Positions 25,637 to 56,534 of a stretch of DNA of 64,000 nt are shown piece after piece. The stretch is taken from positions 218,794 through 282,793 of the forward strand of contig JBAZTX010000003.1 of NCBI GenBank assembly GCA_041661725.1, written 5' to 3'. Source of the stretch: Patescibacteria group bacterium (GTDB lineage: Bacteria; Patescibacteriota; Patescibacteriia; 2-12-FULL-60-25). Position 1 is the stretch's first letter. Each line of letters opens with the position of its first letter. Position numbers and translations under genes: made by a program. The notes beneath the pieces are model-generated. The model was not told the DNA's origin. It made no database searches and saw only the letters and a list, made by a program, of their open reading frames with translations.

Positions 25637-26944
25637 ATGAAATACGCCTACGCTATTGCTATAAGTCTCGCTTTGTTCGGAGCGGGATGCTTTTCGAATC
25701 GTCCCACGTCGCTCGTCCCACGTCCCACGTCGACGGAGCAGAATGCGACGACGACAGTGGATCAAAATCAGTCTGCACCCGGGACGGGAAGCTGGCTGCA
25801 ATACAGAAACTACAATTATGGTTTTGATTTCAAATATCCTGCGAATGCAGTCGAGACTTATAGAAGCGATTCGGCGACAGGGACTGTTTTTACTTTGGAT
25901 CTCGGTCCGACCGTTGCAAGCTCAACCGCGCTTTCTGTACCGGAAGATACGCTTGATGTTAAAATTATTTCTGACGAGATGAGTGCTGATCTTAAAAGCA
26001 GAATTAATATCGAAAACAATTGTTATAATGAGGACGGAGAGTCAGCGCGGGTAACGCCAGGAGTAATCTATAACGGACAACAGGTCTGCGTCGTCGAAAG
26101 CGCGGGCGCGGCTGCAGGGAATCGTTACAATCAATATTGGTATACTATTCCGCTCGGTAAAAAGAATCTGGTTTTTGCTTTCACGATTCACTCGGTCAAT
26201 TGTCAAAACTTCGATAAACCGGGTGCGTGTCTGGCGTTTGATGAAAGCCGCGATTCGCTGGTGAGCAAAATGATAATGTCTACGCTAAATACTTTTACAC
26301 CTAGTAAGAGCAAAGAGAATTTGAATTTGCGATTTGAGACAAAGTCGATTAAAGAAGAGGCTAAAGATCATTCGGTTGATGTGAAATATCCGGTCATGTT
26401 TGGCGGAGATGCTGCGGTGAGAGGTGTGATCAACGGCGCGATCAATACTTACATCAGCACAACGACGCAGACTTTTGCTAGATTGCTTAAGACGGAAGGT
26501 AAAGCGTCACCTGGACCTTTTGTGTTACAGGGCAATTATTCGATTTATAACGTCAGTTCGAATGTTGTCAGTATCGTTTTTAACGGCTACGAATACACGG
26601 GCGGTGCACATGGGATTTCGATTTTCGAGACTTTTGTTTTTGACACTACGACAGGCAACCGTTTGTCGTTTGATGACATCTTCAAATCCGACAGCGGTTA
26701 CCTAAAAATCGTTTCAGATTATGCAATCGCTGAACTTTCCAAGAAGCCGGATATGGATGTTGAGGGCTTAAAATCAGGCGCCGCACCGGATTTGAAAAAT
26801 TATCAATATTACTACTTGAATCAAGATGGCCTCGTTATCATCTTCCCGGAATATCAAGTTGCGCCGTACGCAGCGGGTCCACAGGTTGTGACCGTGCCTT
26901 ACGCCTCACTGAAAGACATAATGAAACTGGAAACTAGAAACTAG
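25637..26944 (+). CDS. Lipoprotein with DUF3298/DUF4163-type (RsiV/PdaC-like) C-terminal domains
   Basis: Lipobox LALFGAGC and YEYTGGAHGISIFETFVFDTTTGNRLSFDDIF...LVIIFPEYQVAPYAAGPQVVTVPY. The last codons and the stop lie inside a PE-1 half element. Confidence 0.75.
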   Translation: MKYAYAIAISLALFGAGCFSNRPTSLVPRPTSTEQNATTTVDQNQSAPGTGSWLQYRNYNYGFDFKYPANAVETYRSDSATGTVFTLDLGPTVASSTALSVPEDTLDVKIISDEMSADLKSRINIENNCYNEDGESARVTPGVIYNGQQVCVVESAGAAAGNRYNQYWYTIPLGKKNLVFAFTIHSVNCQNFDKPGACLAFDESRDSLVSKMIMSTLNTFTPSKSKENLNLRFETKSIKEEAKDHSVDVKYPVMFGGDAAVRGVINGAINTYISTTTQTFARLLKTEGKASPGPFVLQGNYSIYNVSSNVVSIVFNGYEYTGGAHGISIFETFVFDTTTGNRLSFDDIFKSDSGYLKIVSDYAIAELSKKPDMDVEGLKSGAAPDLKNYQYYYLNQDGLVIIFPEYQVAPYAAGPQVVTVPYASLKDIMKLETRN

Positions 26945-26955
26945 AAAGAGCAAAT

Positions 26956-27201
26956 ATGCAAAAAAGATCCTTTGTACCCAATTGGCTCGGGTTGATCAAG
27001 TATTTACGTGACCCGAAATCAGATTGGAAACCGAAGGCTACAATCGTCGTAGCAATCTTGTATTTAATCTGGCCGATAGATCTCTTGCCTGACATAGCGC
27101 CAATACTCGGTTGGCTGGATGATATCGGCATCACGTCGCTCGCCATTGCATATTTGCTGCATGCGTCAGGTCAGTACTCAAAACAAATAGAAAAAGAATA
27201 A
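26956..27201 (+). CDS. DUF1232 (YkvA-like) small membrane protein
   Basis: WPIDLLPDIAPILGWLDDIGI is the family signature. Confidence 0.75.
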   Translation: MQKRSFVPNWLGLIKYLRDPKSDWKPKATIVVAILYLIWPIDLLPDIAPILGWLDDIGITSLAIAYLLHASGQYSKQIEKE

Positions 27202-35637: not shown

Positions 35638-35667
35638 CGTAGGGACAGGTCGCGACCTGTCCCTACG
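35638..35667. terminator. Perfect 13 bp palindrome between convergent hppA and glpK
   Basis: cgtagggacaggtcgcgacctgtccctacg. It overlaps the glpK stop codon. Confidence 0.7.
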
Positions 35668-37258
35668 TCGAAATTGACGCCCAACCGCGGGCGCGTTCTA
35701 TCGCGCGTTCGTATTGGGCCAGAAACGCACGGCCTCGTTCCGGGCGTTTTTGTATAAATGTTTTTTCGCATTTTGAAAATTTGGATGCCTGCTCCCAGGT
35801 CTTCCAAACGCCCGCACCAAGACCTGCAATCATGGCGGCTCCTGCGGCGGTTGATTCCAGATTGTTGGATCGGCAGATTTTGACATTACTCATGTCAGCC
35901 TGACTTTGCATCAGGGGATTGGAGCGCGCCAGTCCGCCGCTGACTTTCCAGAAAGTTGTTTTGCTGTTTGTCTGTTCATCCAACAGCGTGGACATTCTGG
36001 CGGCTTGGCAGGCAATCGCCTCGATTGCGGCGCGGCACAAGTGTGCTTTGGTTGTTCCGCGATTCAAGCCGATAATCAGGCCGCGCGCCGCCGGATCCCA
36101 ATCCGGCGCTGCCAAACCGCTGAAGGCCGGCACAATGGTTACGCCGCCGGTTGTAGTCACGGTTTCCGCAAGAGCGTCGAGTTCTTTCATGTCTTTGACC
36201 AAACTCATTTGATTTTTAAACCATTCGAGCATTGCGCCGCCCGTCAACGCACTTGTCTCAAATGCGTATTCAATCGGATATTCGGGACGATGCCAAGCGA
36301 CCGTCGTCAAAATCCCGCTGGCCGCCGGGTGTGGCAAGTCACCGATCGTTTTGAGGGCAAAAATTCCGGTCCCATACGTCACCGCGGTCATGTTCTTGCC
36401 AAGCGGGCCGTGGCTGAATAGCGCGGCTTGCTGATCTCCCAAGATTCCGGTGATGGGTATCTCGCAACCGAAAAGTTTTTTATCTGTTGTGTCGAATTGT
36501 CCTTCGGACGGCATGAGAAGAGGCATCTGTGATTCTTTGATGCCGAAGAATTTTAATAAATCTTCATCCCAAGTAAGTGTCTTCAAATTAAACAACATGG
36601 TTCTGCTCGCATTCGACGGTTCTGTAGCGTGCAGACGTCCGCCAGTCAAATTCCAAAGTATCCACGAGTCAATCGTACCAAAAATCAACCCTCTCCCTCC
36701 GTCATTGCGAGCGAAGTCAGACGTAGCGCGGACGTAAAATCCCCGTGGGGACCACGTCCCCTCTACGGGGCAATCTTCCTCTTTGTCATTCCTGCGTAGG
36801 CGGGAATCCATCCGATTATATTTATTGTTCAACCACTCAATCTTTGTGGCGCTAAAACTCGGGTCGACGACCAGCCCCGTTGCCGCGCGAATACGGCGCG
36901 CCAGATCGCGATGACTCTCGATCTCTTTGCAGCGCTCCGCCGTTCTCCTGTCTTGCCACACGATGGCTCGCGCAACCGGCTTGCCGTTTTTGGAATTCCA
37001 ACCGACCACCGTTTCTCTTTGATTTGCAATGCCTATGCAAGCGATGTTTTTGGCGTTGACTTTAGTTGCTTTTAAAACTCTTCTTGCGCAGCTTAAAGTT
37101 TTTGTCCAAATTTCAATCGGGTCTTGTTCCACATTTCCATCTTCCCCCGCAAAGATGTTAAGCGGCAAAGAAACTTGCCCGAGTTTTTTAAGTTTGTCGT
37201 CAAAGACAATCGCGCGCGTCGATGTTGTGCCAATGTCCAAAGAGAGGATGTGTTGCAT
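35663..37258 (-). CDS. glpK: Glycerol kinase with ~40-codon in-frame repeat insertion
   Basis: LSLDIGTTSTRAIVFD, GIANQRETVV, LFGTIDSWILWNLTGG and GDQQAALF are FGGY-kinase signatures. Confidence 0.9.
   Translation of the reverse strand: MQHILSLDIGTTSTRAIVFDDKLKKLGQVSLPLNIFAGEDGNVEQDPIEIWTKTLSCARRVLKATKVNAKNIACIGIANQRETVVGWNSKNGKPVARAIVWQDRRTAERCKEIESHRDLARRIRAATGLVVDPSFSATKIEWLNNKYNRMDSRLRRNDKEEDCPVEGTWSPRGFYVRATSDFARNDGGRGLIFGTIDSWILWNLTGGRLHATEPSNASRTMLFNLKTLTWDEDLLKFFGIKESQMPLLMPSEGQFDTTDKKLFGCEIPITGILGDQQAALFSHGPLGKNMTAVTYGTGIFALKTIGDLPHPAASGILTTVAWHRPEYPIEYAFETSALTGGAMLEWFKNQMSLVKDMKELDALAETVTTTGGVTIVPAFSGLAAPDWDPAARGLIIGLNRGTTKAHLCRAAIEAIACQAARMSTLLDEQTNSKTTFWKVSGGLARSNPLMQSQADMSNVKICRSNNLESTAAGAAMIAGLGAGVWKTWEQASKFSKCEKTFIQKRPERGRAFLAQYERAIERARGWASIST
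36690..36810. mobile_element. Composite palindromic (MITE/RPE-like) element inserted in frame inside glpK
   Basis: gtcattgcgagcgaagtcagacgtagcg ... ccccgtggggaccacgtcccctctacgggg ... gtcattcctgcgtaggcgggaatc encodes RLRRNDKEEDCPVEGTWSPRGFYVRATSDFARNDGG, placed between the conserved W-L and LFGTID blocks. Related words occur at 48876-48922, 50246-50362, 51036-51075 and 53283-53410. Confidence 0.75.
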
Positions 37259-37317: not shown

Positions 37318-37950
37318 ATGTCTGAAATTATAGAATTTTTTTCGCGCCTGCATAATTTGGAAGATTTAATACGCTGGGGAGGATACACTGTTTTGGCGGT
37401 TATTGTCTTTGCCGAGTCCGGTCTGTTGATCGGTTTTTTCTTACCCGGTGACTCTCTCCTTGTAACCGCGGGGCTTCTTGCGTCTCAGGGTTATTTGAAC
37501 ATTTGGGAGCTTTGGATATTGTTGTCCGTGATGGCGATTGCGGGTGATTCGGTCGGTTATTATTTTGGCAAAGTCACGGGACCGAAAATTTTTACGCGTG
37601 AAAAATCGATTCTTTTCAATAAAGATCATTTACTGCGCGCGCAGGCTTTTTATGAAAAACACGGCGGTAAAACAATTGTGCTTGCGCGCTTCATGCCTAT
37701 CATCCGAACTTTTGCGCCGATTATTGCAGGAGTCGGTAAAATGCCTTATCGCAAATTCGTGACATATAACGTTGTAGGCGGAATCGGTTGGGTGACATTG
37801 ACTTTGGGTCTTGGATATTTTTTGGGCAGAGTGATACCTGACGCGAGCAAATATTTGCACTGGATCATCATTGCAGTGATTTTTATTTCAATCAGCCCGG
37901 GCGTGATCGCGTGGCTGCGTGAGAGGAACAAACGTACATCACGTACATAG
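37318..37950 (+). CDS. dedA: DedA-family membrane protein
   Basis: FFLPGDSLLVTAG...YFGKVTGPKIF...ARFMPIIRTFAPIIAGVGKM. The last codons and the stop lie in the gtacat repeat. Confidence 0.85.
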   Translation: MSEIIEFFSRLHNLEDLIRWGGYTVLAVIVFAESGLLIGFFLPGDSLLVTAGLLASQGYLNIWELWILLSVMAIAGDSVGYYFGKVTGPKIFTREKSILFNKDHLLRAQAFYEKHGGKTIVLARFMPIIRTFAPIIAGVGKMPYRKFVTYNVVGGIGWVTLTLGLGYFLGRVIPDASKYLHWIIIAVIFISISPGVIAWLRERNKRTSRT

Positions 37951-38008
37951 CGTTTATAGCGTGCATAACGTTGTACGTCAGATACGCGATGTACGCTATG
38001 TACGTTTT
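37928..38008. repeat. gtacat/atgtac palindromic element (family PE-2), copy 1
   Basis: aaacgtacatcacgtacatagcgtttatagcgtgcataacg / ttgtacgtcagatacgcgatgtacgctatgtacg. The copies at 46377-46473 and 47122-47218 are clearly related. Confidence 0.8.
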
Positions 38009-38060
38009 TATGTTTTAAGCTATACTAATGTCACTTAAAGGCTATTAGCCACGTTTTAAT

Positions 38061-46363: not shown

Positions 46364-46376
46364 AAGGACATTTTAA

Positions 46377-46473
46377 CAAAAAACGTACATCGCGTACATA
46401 GCGTGCATAGCGTACATCGCGTTTTTTTTCGCCATGTACGTCAGGTACGCGATGTACGTTATGTACGCTTCGC
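46377..46473. repeat. PE-2 palindromic element, copy 2 (left flank of GC-rich cassette)
   Basis: aaaaaacgtacatcgcgtacatagcgtgcatagcgtacatcgcg-ttttttttcgcc-atgtacgtcaggtacgcgatgtacgttatgtacg. Confidence 0.8.
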
Positions 46474-46475
46474 GT

Positions 46476-46518
46476 AGAAACACATCGAGCCCGATCAGGA
46501 GTAAACCTGTCGGGCTCG
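46476..46518 (-). terminator. Intrinsic terminator of 46542-47021
   Basis: Minus strand: cgagcccga-loop-tcgggctcg followed by atgtgtttct. Confidence 0.65.
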
Positions 46519-47088: not shown

Positions 47089-47117
47089 AGTATAGCATAA
47101 AAATGGGGTTTTGTCAA
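47089..47117 (-). promoter_or_regulatory. Near-consensus sigma70 promoter for 46542-47021
   Basis: Minus strand reads TTGACA, 17 nt spacer, TATACT. Confidence 0.7.
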
Positions 47118-47121
47118 CCCC

Positions 47122-47218
47122 CGCCACGCGTACTTAACGTACATAACGTTCATAACGTACCTGACGTCGTCGGACGCTATGCACGCGATGTACGTGATGT
47201 ACGTTAGGTACGTTATGG
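47122..47218. repeat. PE-2 palindromic element, copy 3 (right flank of GC-rich cassette, inverted relative to copy 2)
   Basis: cgcgtacttaacgtacataacgttcataacgtacctgacgt...acgctatgcacgcgatgtacgtgatgtacgttaggtacg. It aligns best with the reverse complement of 46377-46473 (shared gcgtac.taacgtacat, gtacctgacgt, acgctatgcacgc). Confidence 0.75.
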
Positions 47219-47220
47219 TC

Positions 47221-48330
47221 CTATTGTTTGATGAGCGGTACAACTATTCTGTATCTTTGCGGACCTAGATTTGTAGATCTGACGGCCTCGGCCACAACTG
47301 CTGGTACAAGATATGAGTAATCGTAAGTTTGAGTTTTGGAAAGTCTGACAAAGGCAAAAGAAATATCTGTGATTTGTTTATAGCCAGGCAGGTCACCTGC
47401 AAGTCCGCCGCGTTCCAATAGGCTTTGCAGGGTCGCGGTATCAATGGCAGCGTAATCAGATCTTTGCGGTTCGTCGGGGAAAGTCATCCAGCCCGAAACC
47501 ATTTCGCCGGTTTGTGAATTAACCAAAATTTGTCCGCCCAGTTCCGGCTGCCCGTCTTTATCCACGATATTCCAGCCGTCGAGAAAGCGTTCAAAAGAAA
47601 CGGGCAAGATGCTTGGGTAGCTTGCAACGCATCCTGTCGTCGGTACTTCTGGCAAAGCGGGCGGAGCTTTGTCAAACATTTGGTCGGAAGTTTGCAGCGC
47701 GACGATTTGATTGCGAACGTCTGTCGGCGCGCAGCCTTGCAGTCTGTCGAGCTTGTCGAGCCAGACGCTCCATGCCGGGGCGATTTGAATATTTTTTAAC
47801 AACTGTTCGTTGATGCCGCGTAGTTTTAAAAATACGTCGACTTTATCTATCAGTTGCTCGTTGCCCATCCATGAATTGACGATGGGATTTTTGGGTTTTG
47901 TCGTGTCATTCGTAAAAGTCAGTTTATGATCAAGCGAATAATATTTCCAAACAGCGCTTTCTTTGTTGGTCCACGTAAGTGCGTAGCCAAGATTGCGAGT
48001 GTCATCGCCGACAAGACCGGCTGGCAAGCCGATGGCCTGGGTCAAGTTTTGAAATTCAGTCAGATTCAAATCGCCGGCGGGTAAACGCACAACAGTCACA
48101 GTCGGCTGTATTGTCGGCAGATCTGTATCGATGTTTATCACGTCGGTGCTTTTGCCTGTCGGAAAATTAATTTTTGGCAAGATTCCAAAACCGCCGTTTT
48201 GCGAAGGAGCGCCTCCGATTTCCGCAGGGCCGAGCGTTTCCGCAATCTGCGGGACTGTAATCGGTTGATTGCAGCCGGCAGCCATCAAGGGCACGACAAT
48301 CAGCAGAAGGAACGAATGTTTTGGTCTCAT
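47221..48330 (-). CDS. Hypothetical lipoprotein
   Basis: MRPKHSFLLLIVVPLMAAGC lipobox, 369 aa. I recognise no catalytic motif. Confidence 0.7.
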   Translation of the reverse strand: MRPKHSFLLLIVVPLMAAGCNQPITVPQIAETLGPAEIGGAPSQNGGFGILPKINFPTGKSTDVINIDTDLPTIQPTVTVVRLPAGDLNLTEFQNLTQAIGLPAGLVGDDTRNLGYALTWTNKESAVWKYYSLDHKLTFTNDTTKPKNPIVNSWMGNEQLIDKVDVFLKLRGINEQLLKNIQIAPAWSVWLDKLDRLQGCAPTDVRNQIVALQTSDQMFDKAPPALPEVPTTGCVASYPSILPVSFERFLDGWNIVDKDGQPELGGQILVNSQTGEMVSGWMTFPDEPQRSDYAAIDTATLQSLLERGGLAGDLPGYKQITDISFAFVRLSKTQTYDYSYLVPAVVAEAVRSTNLGPQRYRIVVPLIKQ

Positions 48331-48863: not shown

Positions 48864-50231
48864 ATGTCTGAATCCCCATTGTCATTTCGACCGAAGCGTA
48901 AAAGCGAAGTGGAGAAATCTCATCGCTCAAAACCTTCAACAGCTCATCGAGTTGGTCATGGTTTGAGATCGGTTTATTTGGATAACGCCGCAGCCTCGCC
49001 GCTTGATGCAAAAGTTTTAAAAGCGATGTTGCCTTATTTTAGTTCCATTGCTGCTAACCCGTCATCTTTACATTCCGCGGGACAAGCTGCTAACAAAGCC
49101 GTGACACAGGCGCGAAAGTCAATTGCTGAAATCATAAATGGCCATGCCGATGAGATCATTTTTACTTCGGGGGGAACCGAGTCGGATAATTTGGCGATTA
49201 ACGGTGTCATTGCGGAATGTCGTACAACGTACAACGTACAACGTACCAACGTCGAAAGCGGGTTGCCGCATGTCGTCACGACCGCGATCGAGCACCATGC
49301 GATATTGGAGTTGCTGACGCGTTTACAAAAGAAGGGCGAGATTGATTTGACTATCGTCAAACCGCAAAAGAATGGCGTCGTGAAAGTCGACGACGTGATG
49401 TCGGCCATAAATGACAGAACCGTCTTGGTCAGTGTTATGTATGCCAACAACGAGATCGGCACGATCCAACCAATCGGCGATATCGGACGGGCGATACTCA
49501 AATATCGAAGCTCGAAGCTCGAATCTCGAAACATCGAACGTGGTACGTCGTACGATGTACGTGGCACGTTTCCTTTGTTTCATTCCGACGCCTGTCAGGC
49601 CGCGGGTTATCTTGATTTGAATGTTGAAAAATTGCATGTTGATTTGCTGACTTTAAACGGCGGAAAAATTTACGGACCAAAAGGCATCGGATTTTTGTTT
49701 GTCCGCCGCGGAGTAAAACTTGCACCGACTGTTATCGGCGGAGGTCAGGAAAGAGGTTTAAGATCCGGCACGGAAAACGTGCCGGGAATCGTCGGCATGG
49801 CAAAAGCATTGGAGCTGGCGCAAAAAGATCGCGATAAAGAATCAAAACGTCTTGCGCAGCTTCGCGACAGATTGATAAAAGGACTTTTACGCATTCCAAA
49901 GTCGCGCTTAAACGGCGATCCTGTCGAGCGTTTGCCTAATAACGTTAACATCTCGTTTATGGACATCGAGGGCGAGGCAGCGATGTTGTACTTGGATGCA
50001 AAAGGCATCTCGTGTTCAACCGGTTCGGCCTGTGCATCAACTTCGCTCGATCCATCGCATGTCATTCTCGCACTCGGCATGTCGTACGAAGCTGCACACG
50101 GTTCACTTCGTTTTTCTCTCGGTCACGACACGACAAAGTCGGACGTTGACTACGTAATAAAAGTAATGCCCGGCATTGTCGAGATGCTGCGCAAGATTAG
50201 TCCGGTAACATTGGACATGTCGCATTTCTAA
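48864..50231 (+). CDS. iscS: Cysteine desulfurase (NifS/IscS class) with three repeat-derived in-frame segments
   Basis: VYLDNAA, FTSGGTESDNLAI, HSDACQAAG and active-site loop STGSACAS. The true start is uncertain because the first ~30 codons derive from a gtcatttcgaccgaagcg repeat. Confidence 0.9.
   Translation: MSESPLSFRPKRKSEVEKSHRSKPSTAHRVGHGLRSVYLDNAAASPLDAKVLKAMLPYFSSIAANPSSLHSAGQAANKAVTQARKSIAEIINGHADEIIFTSGGTESDNLAINGVIAECRTTYNVQRTNVESGLPHVVTTAIEHHAILELLTRLQKKGEIDLTIVKPQKNGVVKVDDVMSAINDRTVLVSVMYANNEIGTIQPIGDIGRAILKYRSSKLESRNIERGTSYDVRGTFPLFHSDACQAAGYLDLNVEKLHVDLLTLNGGKIYGPKGIGFLFVRRGVKLAPTVIGGGQERGLRSGTENVPGIVGMAKALELAQKDRDKESKRLAQLRDRLIKGLLRIPKSRLNGDPVERLPNNVNISFMDIEGEAAMLYLDAKGISCSTGSACASTSLDPSHVILALGMSYEAAHGSLRFSLGHDTTKSDVDYVIKVMPGIVEMLRKISPVTLDMSHF
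49221..49255. repeat. cgtacaa stutter block in frame in iscS
   Basis: cgtacaacgtacaacgtacaacgtaccaacgtcg encodes RTTYNVQRTNV, placed between the conserved NLAI and HV.T..IEH blocks. Confidence 0.8.
49503..49568. repeat. cgaagctcgaa + gtacg stutter block in frame in iscS
   Basis: atatcgaagctcgaagctcgaatctcgaaacatcgaacgtggtacgtcgtacgatgtacgtggcacg encodes YRSSKLESRNIERGTSYDVRGT, just before FHSDACQ. Confidence 0.8.
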
Positions 50232-50245
50232 CTTAATGACTTGTC

Positions 50246-50362
50246 TGTCATTCCGAGCGAAGTGCCCAAACTCATGGCACGTAGTCGAGGAATCCCTTGT
50301 TAAACAGTTGGATTGTTATGTAAGGGATCCCTCCACTTCGCTACGCTACGGTCGGGATGACA
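50246..50362. mobile_element. MITE-like imperfect palindrome (gtcattccgagcgaag family)
   Basis: tgtcattccgagcgaagtg...gaggaatccctt / aagggatccctccacttcgctacgctacggtcgggatgaca, intergenic between iscS and nifU. Confidence 0.7.
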
Positions 50363-51029: not shown

Positions 51030-51082
51030 ATTTAATTGTCATTGCGAGGGAAGTCGGAGCGACGTGGCAATCTTCAAATGGA

Positions 51083-53230: not shown

Positions 53231-53436
53231 ACTAGAAACTGACAACTGTAAACTGGAAAGAGCGAATTAAGTTGTTAAGCACTGAGATTTCTCTCCCGCC
53301 TCCAACTGATACATGTCTGCGGGATCCCGAAGGAAGCGGGACACTTCGCTTTTACGCTACGGTCGAAATGACAGGAGGGGAGGAACTTTCCGGTAGAAAT
53401 GACGGAGGGTACTCTTTCCAGTTTACAGTTTCTAGT
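53231..53436. mobile_element. PE-1 element whose arms are separated by ~150 nt of other repeat-family sequence (nested insertion)
   Basis: Left arm actagaaactgacaactgtaaactggaaagagcg (53231-53264) and right arm ctctttccagtttacagtttctagt (53412-53436). The interior carries gggatcccgaaggaagcggg...cgctacggtcgaaatgaca, related to 50246-50362. Confidence 0.7.
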
Positions 53437-53451
53437 TTATCCTGTTGCAGT

Positions 53452-55246: not shown

Positions 55247-55274
55247 ATTGTACATTTTTTTGGGACTTTGTCAA
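55247..55274 (-). promoter_or_regulatory. Near-consensus sigma70 promoter for 53778-55136
   Basis: Minus strand reads TTGACA, 16 nt spacer, TACAAT, giving a ~110 nt leader. Confidence 0.7.
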
Positions 55275-55282
55275 CCCTATTT

Positions 55283-55353
55283 AACTAGAAACTGGAAAGA
55301 GCGATTCGGTTTAACACATAACTCTTTCCAGTTTCTAGTTTCCAGTTTTCAGT
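55283..55353. repeat. PE-1 palindromic element, full copy
   Basis: aactagaaactggaaagagcgattcggtttaacacataactctttccagtttctagtttccagttttcag. Its right arm encodes the last codons (ILKTGN) and the TAG stop of the methyltransferase gene. Confidence 0.85.
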
Positions 55354-56534
55354 ATCCTTACGTTCCTACGCAGATGCTGTCCGGTTCTTTCGTAATACAT
55401 GTCCATTTGCCTTAGATTGGCGGGCAAATCCTCCAAAGCGAATCCCAGTGACGCAAAGTCGATGTCCGAATCCGTTGCAATGATTTGCGAGCCGACTTTG
55501 TAAGACGGAAAAATGGCAACAATGCGTCCATCTTTTTTCATCAATGGTTTAAGCGCTGCCAGAGCATCTTTCCAAAGTTGAGTGATTTGAGATGCGTTTT
55601 TTTGAATCTCGCTCAACGATTCGCGGCCTCTCAAGGCAGGTCCGAGCCAGCCTTCCGTAACAACCGCATCAATCGATTTCGGCGAAAGATAGTGCCCGAC
55701 TTCTTTTACATCAGAAGTAAAAACTTTAAAACGAGTTTCATCGTCTTGCGATAAAATATTTTTATTCAAAAGCCATTCTAAGTTTCCGGAAGTGTCATCC
55801 GTTTGTCGTTCGTCGATGTCGCTGCCGATTATTTTTGTTTCGCTTGTCGCCAAAGCGGCTTCCATTAAAATAGTGCCTGATCCGCAAAACGGATCCAACA
55901 AAGTTCCGCCGTCCGGCGTTTGTGCAAGATTGACCATCATGCGCGCAAGTTTTGGCGGCAACATTCCGTTGATATCATCGCGGCATGGGCGGCCGTAATC
56001 GCGCAAACTCCACGCGTCAGCATCTTGTACCTGCGTTGTGCGTCCCAAAAAAGTTTTGCCTTTGTCGAGCATCAAACAAAAATCTGCGTTTGGTTGTTCG
56101 GTCAGATGGCATTTGGCCACCGCGGCAGGGGAGAGCGGCTGCCCGCCTTCGCCGCTGACCCAACGGATCTTCCATCCCAATTCTTTTAATGCACGTTTAA
56201 TGTGCAATGGATATTTTTCAAAAATCTTTTTTTCTTTTCCATTTCCTCCAAAGGACGTCCAACCGAATTCAAGACCTGTCATCTCTTGTTTGCCGGAGGC
56301 GAGCTGTGCAATATCTGCAGCTTTCAAATCCGTGCCTTTTGACTCCAAAATCACGTCGCCGAGCTTAATGACTCCGCCAAGTTGGCTCATTAGAACATCA
56401 GCCTGCCAGTCGTTCATCTCCACGATGCAGGTGTTTGGAGTTTGGGAGACTATTTTCGCCTTTGGTTTAAAAGCCAAAAATTCCGCTAAAGATAGCCGTG
56501 GATGGTTGCCGAAGACAAGAAAGTGGAGAGCCAT
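55335..56534 (-). CDS. THUMP-like + class I SAM-dependent RNA (guanine-N2-type, Trm11/RlmL-like) methyltransferase
   Basis: N-terminal FLVFGNHPRLSLAEF, SAM motif I LLDPFCGSGTILMEAAL, motif IV-like DAVVTEGWLGP. Start taken at MALHF; the upstream extension consists of cgtccc repeat words. Confidence 0.65.
   Translation of the reverse strand: MALHFLVFGNHPRLSLAEFLAFKPKAKIVSQTPNTCIVEMNDWQADVLMSQLGGVIKLGDVILESKGTDLKAADIAQLASGKQEMTGLEFGWTSFGGNGKEKKIFEKYPLHIKRALKELGWKIRWVSGEGGQPLSPAAVAKCHLTEQPNADFCLMLDKGKTFLGRTTQVQDADAWSLRDYGRPCRDDINGMLPPKLARMMVNLAQTPDGGTLLDPFCGSGTILMEAALATSETKIIGSDIDERQTDDTSGNLEWLLNKNILSQDDETRFKVFTSDVKEVGHYLSPKSIDAVVTEGWLGPALRGRESLSEIQKNASQITQLWKDALAALKPLMKKDGRIVAIFPSYKVGSQIIATDSDIDFASLGFALEDLPANLRQMDMYYERTGQHLRRNVRILKTGN

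Follow-up and report, generated by a model that had tools for sequence, protein, structure and literature searches.

In-frame hairpin-repeat modules in glycerol kinase and other genes of a Patescibacteria genome, and their linkage to Ssn-like GIY-YIG genes

The gene for glycerol kinase, glpK, is an intact open reading frame (ORF) of 531 amino acids on the minus strand (35663..37258) of a 64,000-nt stretch of DNA from a Patescibacteria group bacterium (assembly GCA_041661725.1, contig JBAZTX010000003.1, positions 218,794 to 282,793), hereafter called the window. Between two conserved blocks of this gene lies a segment of additional codons, interpreted by a reading made from the letters alone (hereafter the sequence-only reading) as one palindromic repeat element inserted in frame. 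Where did these codons come from, and is the protein still an enzyme with them in place? As set out below, the 36 extra codons are very probably selfish hairpin-repeat DNA that is tolerated in a loop of the protein and belongs to a repeat superfamily tied to small Ssn-like genes of the GIY-YIG type.

The identity of the protein is given by full-length homology, fold and conserved residues, all of which are those of a glycerol kinase of the FGGY family. A PDB sequence search returned GlpK matches with E values down to 4.5e-120, and the solved structures align in two pieces, residues 2-145 and 183-527, all of them skipping the insert. The window GlpK was aligned with ten orthologues from other Patescibacteria metagenome-assembled genomes (MAGs; 63-87% identity by tblastn, 67-92% in the alignment) and three distant GlpKs, giving an alignment of 14 sequences. 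A short form, 'WLNKKYNHNGNKQLVFGT' or similar, is present in eight of the ten Patescibacteria orthologues at the site where the window protein reads 'WLNNKYN-RMDSRLRRNDKEEDCPVEGTWSPRGFYVRATSDFARNDGGRG-LIFGT'. The boundaries of the inserted segment fall at codons 149-190 (RMDSRLRRNDKEEDCPVEGTWSPRGFYVRATSDFARNDGGRG; 36689..36814, minus strand), i.e., 42 codons (126 nt) versus the 6 codons (HNGNKQ) of short-form relatives, a net gain of 36 codons or ~108 bases. The site is the loop between helix 136-148 and the strand LIFGT (191-195), and 48 residues separate W142 from L191. The coordinates, the peptide and the 48-residue spacing given by the sequence-only reading were all correct when checked by ORF translation and alignment, and its claim of an in-frame insertion is borne out by the orthologues with 6 codons at the site and by the continuous reading frame. 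Its figure of ~40 extra codons was slightly too high, and what it had described as a single element turned out to be a composite. It had also overlooked the linked Ssn-like GIY-YIG genes and the modules in at least 13 further genes of this genome.

BLAST of the region against its own genome resolved the insert into module A, a 9-nt C/T spacer and module B, with both modules antisense to glpK. Module A (75 nt; 36701..36775, plus strand; encoding DCPVEGTWSPRGFYVRATSDFARND) has a nested architecture, in which a 36-nt shell made of GTC, ATTGC...GCAAT and C carries in its loop a double hairpin of ~39 nt (ACGTAAAATCCCCGTGGGGACCACGTCCCCTCTACGGGG; 36732..36770, plus strand, boundaries uncertain by 1-2 nt). 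With the double hairpin removed, the outer 36 nt are the common module GTCATTGCGAGCGAAGTCCGACGGAGCGCGGCAATC of a 35-nt family, the head of which occurs at that length in 34 copies in the module census described below. Relatives of the double hairpin (~90% identical) also stand alone in the genome, at C3:134964-135002, C1:365859-365897, C1:295920-295948 and C1:418985-419013; the free-standing mini-repeat reads GGGCAGGGCGTAAAGCCCCGTGGGGGCCACGCCCCTCTACGGGGG, and one copy lies in the N-terminal part of a TrmA-like ORF. There are 14 near-full genome copies of module A, 92-100% identical to the reference copy C1:94402-94479; the copy in glpK is 97% identical to that reference, and the 13 others were found with BLAST E values of 1e-23 to 1e-34. 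As single-stranded DNA (ssDNA) the module folds at -16.3 kcal/mol (z -2.4). The spacer (TTCCTCTTT; 36776..36784, plus strand, between the two modules) encodes KEE; another C/T run (CCCTCTCCCTCC) stands on the 5' side of module A, CATCCG follows module B, and tandem modules elsewhere in the genome are likewise joined by C/T spacers. Module B (24 nt, GTCATTCCTGCGTAGGCGGGAATC; 36785..36808, plus strand; encoding DSRLRRND) is a hairpin of the NTS/dRS3 kind with ~30 genome copies by BLAST, which as ssDNA forms an 8-bp stem and a 4-nt loop, like NTS (z -2.55). It nearly matches the NTS published for Neisseria by Chenal et al. in 2025, CGTCATTCCCGCGMAVGCGGGAATCYRG, which contains dRS3 (PMC11893778), and likewise the NTS copies that flank a gonococcal ssnA-like ORF. 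That the insert is written in the same words as intergenic palindromes of the window, as had been proposed, is confirmed by GTCATTGCGAGCGAAGT, with 4 matches in the window at ≤3 mismatches against 0.3 expected, and by the genome copies of the 75-nt unit.

An Rfam scan of the region gave no match near the gathering score; the sole related one is a weak match of FtrB, a Francisella small RNA model, which spans window positions 36767-36826 over the hairpin of module B and is caused by an NTS-like hairpin (GTCATTCCcGCGTAGGCGgGAATC) within the model. It seems that this curated small RNA family contains a copy of the same cross-phylum repeat. Intein, intron and programmed-frameshift readings were dropped, as the segment is 126 nt of repeat DNA in a continuous frame and shows no intein or intron features.

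The segment could instead be an old, lineage-specific loop of GlpK that merely resembles the repeats, and two orthologues do have extra residues at the site. In both, however, these residues are other modules of the same superfamily. The glpK of the closest relative, G002 (locus L010; 92% amino-acid identity), has a decayed 34-nt module of another subfamily in the same loop and orientation, matching copies in the genome of the window at 32 of 36 positions, and that of G013 (locus L005) has a third module type at this loop. The site is empty in G010, G012, G014 and six further orthologues, same-genus members among them. Since G013 (71% identity to the window GlpK) is no closer than the module-free G010 (76%), the loop was hit at least twice independently. 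Same-genus orthologues that lack the segment, together with its 97% identity to intergenic copies, thus make it an insertion and not an ancestral loop. That identity also stands against a synonymous divergence (dS) of 0.675 between this glpK and its nearest relative, and an ancestral loop is scarcely credible as the source of the extra codons.

A more trivial source would be a chimeric join induced by repeats during assembly. Assemblers may be misled by short repeats, and this MAG consists of 13 contigs; the flanks of the insert, however, are the two halves of one gene, joined in register and in frame, and the insert of 126 nt is shorter than typical reads and k-mer paths. Modules are also found at this site in two other species, each assembled independently, and the same in-frame pattern recurs in at least 13 other genes of this genome. 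We consider an artefact very improbable.

Is the product still a glycerol kinase? The Nei-Gojobori ratio of nonsynonymous to synonymous divergence (dN/dS) against G002 is 0.083 over the whole gene, and because this reflects strong purifying selection, glpK is not regarded as a pseudogene. Every invariant column of the 14-sequence alignment is retained in the window GlpK. In an AlphaFold2 model built on that alignment the mean predicted confidence (pLDDT) is 81.8 and only residues 151-188 are below 50; this low-confidence segment, which coincides with the insert, lies between helix 136-148 (plus a short helix 150-156) and strand 191-195, while the core is unperturbed, with TM scores of 0.85-0.92 against the E. 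coli, Thermus and Thermococcus enzymes (normalised by target length). The site probably lies outside the known regulatory loops of E. coli GlpK (fructose-bisphosphate, ~230-236; IIA-Glc, ~472-481). Five of the six reading frames of the insert contain stops, and the sole open one is the frame used by glpK. One could still suppose that the insertion has killed the enzyme and that glpK is a young pseudogene whose frame is open by chance, given that module A spread recently, leaving little time for decay, and that dN/dS also averages over the time before the insertion. The low dN/dS, the retained invariant columns, the use of the only open frame and the intact model core all speak against this, as do relatives whose genes have retained modules in this loop and are otherwise conserved, and we regard a dead enzyme as improbable. 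We argue that the insert is probably translated into a surface loop that is predicted to be disordered and that GlpK appears to tolerate.

The two modules are members of a superfamily that is spread over the genome (1.37 Mb, 48% G+C). A census with the pattern GTCA plus 4 nt, followed by a complementary tail within 120 nt, gave approximately 446 raw matches versus 92 in the shuffled genome; 305 of them have a conserved inner signature and 255 are non-nested. The shared design consists of an invariant GTC (itself demanded by the census pattern), a palindrome closed by ATyxC/GxrAT, and an invariant C. The C stands directly after the palindrome in 251 of the 255 modules, and the base before GTC is T in 240 (94%) and C in 13 (5%), neither position being imposed by the search. 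Subfamilies are distinguished by covarying closing stems (ATTGC/GCAAT, ATTTC/GAAAT, ATTCC/GGAAT, ATCTC/GAGAT, ATCCC/GGGAT), and the typical module length is 31-47 nt.

GlpK is not the only protein affected, as forty-odd modules lie within 22 long ORFs of the genome. Gene calls were ORF-based, and besides glpK at least 13 host genes are considered secure, the module being flanked or surrounded by Pfam domain matches or by conserved sequence. They include an AddA-like helicase-nuclease with three modules between its helicase N and C domains, the genes uvrB, uvrC and xseA, and those for TGT, TrmD, PrmC and a TrmA-like methyltransferase with four modules. YmdB, a Wzy-type ligase, a GH5 glycosidase and an HI0933-like flavoprotein are further hosts, and a GT4 glycosyltransferase, whose sequence on both sides is conserved in orthologues, contains the second intragenic module A, read in the same frame as in glpK (DCPVEGTWSPRGLYVRATSDSARND). 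Recurrent module-encoded peptides are DCRAPSD[FYS]ARND, LSLRAKSDxARQS, DSRLRRND and VIPAQAGI. Modules at the N-terminal end of ORFs (a P-type ATPase, ScpB, GrpE, a Mur-ligase-like protein and a cysteine desulfurase) and one after the last domain of DinB were left out of the secure count because the true starts or stops may exclude them.

Comparison with relatives shows that these insertions turn over. Against the 14 copies of full-length module A in this genome, G002 has one and the 29 other relatives searched have none, i.e., its burst is recent. In uvrB, the insert is absent in four members of the genus, a single module is present in G002, and the window's genome has that module plus two truncated units of 30 nt gained after the split from G002. 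The extra uvrB units add 'KGEPKFAQDD KGEPDYARDD' in comparison with the closest relative. Truncated units of this kind, 5' halves of modules together with a C/T spacer (GTCATCTCGAGCG...), repeat every 30-31 nt in tandem arrays that stand ahead of one complete module, at C1:143020-143114 (uvrB), C1:236029-236123 and C1:81153-81236. The loops of TGT and GT4 that correspond to the host loops here contain different repeat-derived peptides in each species, so that further repeat families take part. These loops are hypervariable in G001, G002, G010, G012 and G013 (loci L091-L100), with peptides such as '...FEIQRSGNSS', 'ILADAGIQ...RLRRKDD' and 'SVILSEVSPRTESKDL'.

Besides UvrC, the genome has ten small GIY-YIG ORFs. 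The pattern YFVYI..GTLYxGV..EREKQIKxW..NPxWxDL is common to six, of which four are intact and two have stops, and these are called Ssn-like here, with Pfam GIY-YIG scores of 50-58 bits; the intact genes encode single-domain proteins of 94-103 aa. These proteins are 40% identical over 91 residues (BLASTP, E 3e-20) to a 94-aa ORF of N. gonorrhoeae that had been found by tblastn. NTS copies flank this ORF, and it has the three residues that were mutated in SsnA (Y6, Y17 and E64); from these sequence features we identify it as SsnA, and the Ssn-like proteins of the genome are accordingly homologues of SsnA and putative nucleases. No informative or specific name was returned for the GIY-YIG proteins by NCBIfam, and a PDB sequence search with an Ssn-like protein gave weak UPF0213 matches only. 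By census, three of the four intact and both broken Ssn-like genes have inward-facing modules on both sides, 4-30 nt away; beside the fourth intact gene (C1:308078-308389) only BLAST matches of module B adjoin. One module A copy stands 11 nt after the stop of the Ssn-like gene C1:465367-465660. The paralogues each have their own module subfamily, and Ssn-like genes are present in 26 of 31 related genomes.

Could a RAYT or some other transposase have moved these modules as ordinary REP/REPIN or MITE elements, the GIY-YIG genes being mere bystanders? Clustered short hairpins do resemble REP/BIME arrays, and like REP/REPIN repeats those described here also flank their cognate gene. For the related CGTC-tagged palindromic repeats no transposase has been associated, and mobilisation by other transposases was left open by Di Nocera, De Gregorio and Rocco in 2013 (PMC3733652). 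Unlike in RAYT systems, however, the tag is GTC and not GTAG, no Y1/RAYT transposase scored above the cut-off anywhere in the genome (best PF01797 score 18.5 bits vs 23), and the linked gene codes for a GIY-YIG nuclease homologue. Long terminal inverted repeats and target duplications were not seen. By census, moreover, inverted modules bracket three of the four intact Ssn-like genes and both broken ones, and we consider a transposase-driven origin highly improbable.

By their design the modules appear to belong with the CGTC-tagged REP and NTS/SRM class, a kind of repeat that is already known. The CGTC-tagged palindromes include dRS3 of Neisseria and RPE-4 and RPE-6 of R. conorii; a minority of their copies is intragenic and in frame, adding 10-80 residues, and a striking share of the hosts of intragenic CGTC and GTAG REPs are uvrA/B, UvrD/RecBCD-type helicases, recombination nucleases and tRNA enzymes (PMC3733652). 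The modules resemble them as short stem-loops with a GTC-containing tag at one end, often clustered or paired, with many subfamilies per genome, no RAYT, some copies in frame, and a list of host genes that closely resembles the one of 2013. They differ in the tag, which here is mostly TGTC and seldom CGTC, in being mostly longer with weaker internal pairing, in having one nested 75-nt composite, and in their host phylum, Patescibacteria, which lay outside the 2013 sampling. RPE-1 type elements (Ogata et al.) are palindromes of ~100-150 nt found in frame within working genes of a reduced genome, where they are tolerated because of their position in surface-exposed parts. The present repeats are like them, by description, in being palindromic and in frame inside genes, and unlike them in that glpK carries two small tagged hairpins in tandem in place of a single long palindrome. 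The parallel with Rickettsia palindromic elements drawn by the sequence-only reading is therefore closer than it had supposed, as RPE-4 and RPE-6 fall in the CGTC-tagged class, although this likeness is one of shared design and of the class assignment by Di Nocera et al., taken from description (PMC3733652).

Another close match is with NTS and SsnA. This 94-aa GIY-YIG protein binds and cuts NTS as single-stranded DNA only; cleavage depends on the 3 nt upstream of the palindrome and binding on the C that follows it, and the gene of SsnA is flanked by NTS copies (PMC11893778). Here, module B is almost an NTS, the near-invariant positions of the modules are the ones critical for SsnA, small GIY-YIG genes are bracketed by inverted repeats, and hundreds of copies occur in a small genome of symbiont size. 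Differences are the several Ssn-like paralogues with module subfamilies of their own, and the SRM pattern and flank orientation discussed below; in-frame intragenic copies and bacteria of the candidate phyla radiation (CPR) are not mentioned in the account of Chenal et al. (PMC11893778). In the literature searched, we found no description of in-frame hairpin repeats or of their association with GIY-YIG genes in CPR bacteria.

Several points weigh against the reading of the insert as selfish hairpin DNA tied to Ssn-like genes. Movement of repeats by Ssn nucleases has only been proposed, by analogy with IS200/IS605 (PMC11893778). No target-site duplication or clean empty-site junction was definable at the glpK insert in the ortholog alignments, because the ancestral 18 nt were replaced and do not flank it. 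The published SRM pattern, HGTCWYN(0-2)YYVSBRHN(0-5)WNVSBRGN(0-2)RNCYNB, is unenriched in the genome (7 matches vs a mean of 4.75 in Markov-1 controls), the loops of the modules exceeding the lengths that it allows, and the modules around Ssn-like genes, with their GTC heads outward and pointing in, are oriented opposite to those of the gonococcal locus. Several of the longer modules fold no better than shuffles, and most hairpins are longer and weaker than NTS. Finally, the census was biased to perfect 5-bp closing stems, and the module counts are approximate because the pattern demanded a complementary tail. With these points taken into account, selfish hairpin DNA linked to Ssn-like genes is still the reading that we hold, and its spread could be pictured as follows. 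Modules would move through single-stranded hairpin intermediates, helped by the cognate Ssn-like nuclease, and selection would spare only those insertions that fall in tolerant loops, offer a stop-free frame and change the length by a net multiple of three. Once resident, a module may make its loop prone to further additions, swaps and tandem growth, all of these possibly by recombination among copies, by slippage (for the 30-nt units), or by nuclease targeting of the module itself.

Selfish origin and later use are compatible, and the insert may have been put to work as an Ssn cut site on incoming single strands that limits recombination in core genes, as an mRNA hairpin that affects glpK expression, or as a new functional loop of the protein. 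In Neisseria, NTS sites together with SsnA lower the integration of transforming DNA (PMC11893778), and the same GlpK, TGT and GT4 loops hold modules in several species, most of the related genomes having Ssn-like genes. However, a given loop holds different modules in different species and none in many others, and so has no conserved sequence; the insert region has an unexceptional RNA fold (z -1.72), and the loop is predicted to be disordered. A present-day use is in our opinion unlikely. Also improbable, and speculative, is a broader picture in which Ssn nucleases and hairpins form an active mobile system of many Patescibacteria lineages that re-targets permissive loops or resident modules by cassette exchange and remodels repair, tRNA-modification and metabolic enzymes, and in which intragenic hairpins might mark core genes for Ssn cutting of incoming ssDNA, in bacteria whose way of life depends on taking up DNA.

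The kind of element being known, the finding overturns nothing. It extends in-frame hairpin repeats from Rickettsia, Neisseria-type repeats and other Proteobacteria to the CPR, and it joins the 2013 puzzle of CGTC repeats without a transposase to the Ssn nucleases of 2025, neither of the two papers citing the other on this aspect. In a single genome one can see, side by side, putative nuclease genes with repeat subfamilies of their own, in-frame insertions and a burst that is recent (14 copies vs 1). For CPR genomes the practical effect of such inserts is inflated and blurred protein alignments and annotations; the inserts also mark protein loops that tolerate 10-40 extra residues.

Further modules of the superfamily were located in the window. 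The cysteine desulfurase ORF has a module of the 38-nt family (GTCATTTC...GAAATC; 48881..48919, plus strand) at its 5' end. This ORF begins 2 nt after the stop of an upstream Rrf2-type gene (48864-48960), and the module falls among the first 20 codons. The real start of the cysteine desulfurase may be an in-frame TTG immediately ahead of 'RSVYLDNAA', in which case the module would be in the 5' untranslated region; otherwise it would be translated. An intergenic module of the 47-nt family (GTCATTCC...GGAATC; 50247..50294, plus strand) has an inverted partner of the 35-nt family (GTCATCCC...GGGATC; 50326..50361, minus strand), and a module of the 34-nt family (GTCATTGCGAGGGAAGTCGGAGCGACGTGGCAATC; 51038..51072, plus strand) is also intergenic. 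Unrelated palindromic families made of stuttered words of 7-9 nt (CGTACATNN; AAACTAGAAACTGG) occur at gene ends in the window, at 37927-38009, 46375-46476 and 47114-47224, and at 597-680, 26916-26958, 53231-53438 and 55272-55363. A second class of small GIY-YIG genes comprises four that have no flanking GTC-hairpin modules and each lie directly downstream of a same-strand tRNA gene (C2:164718-165122, tRNA-Met; C3:164082-164489, Ala-GGC; C2:357745-358002, Ala-UGC; C1:137610-137882, Asn), and two of these ORFs read through the tRNA sequence.

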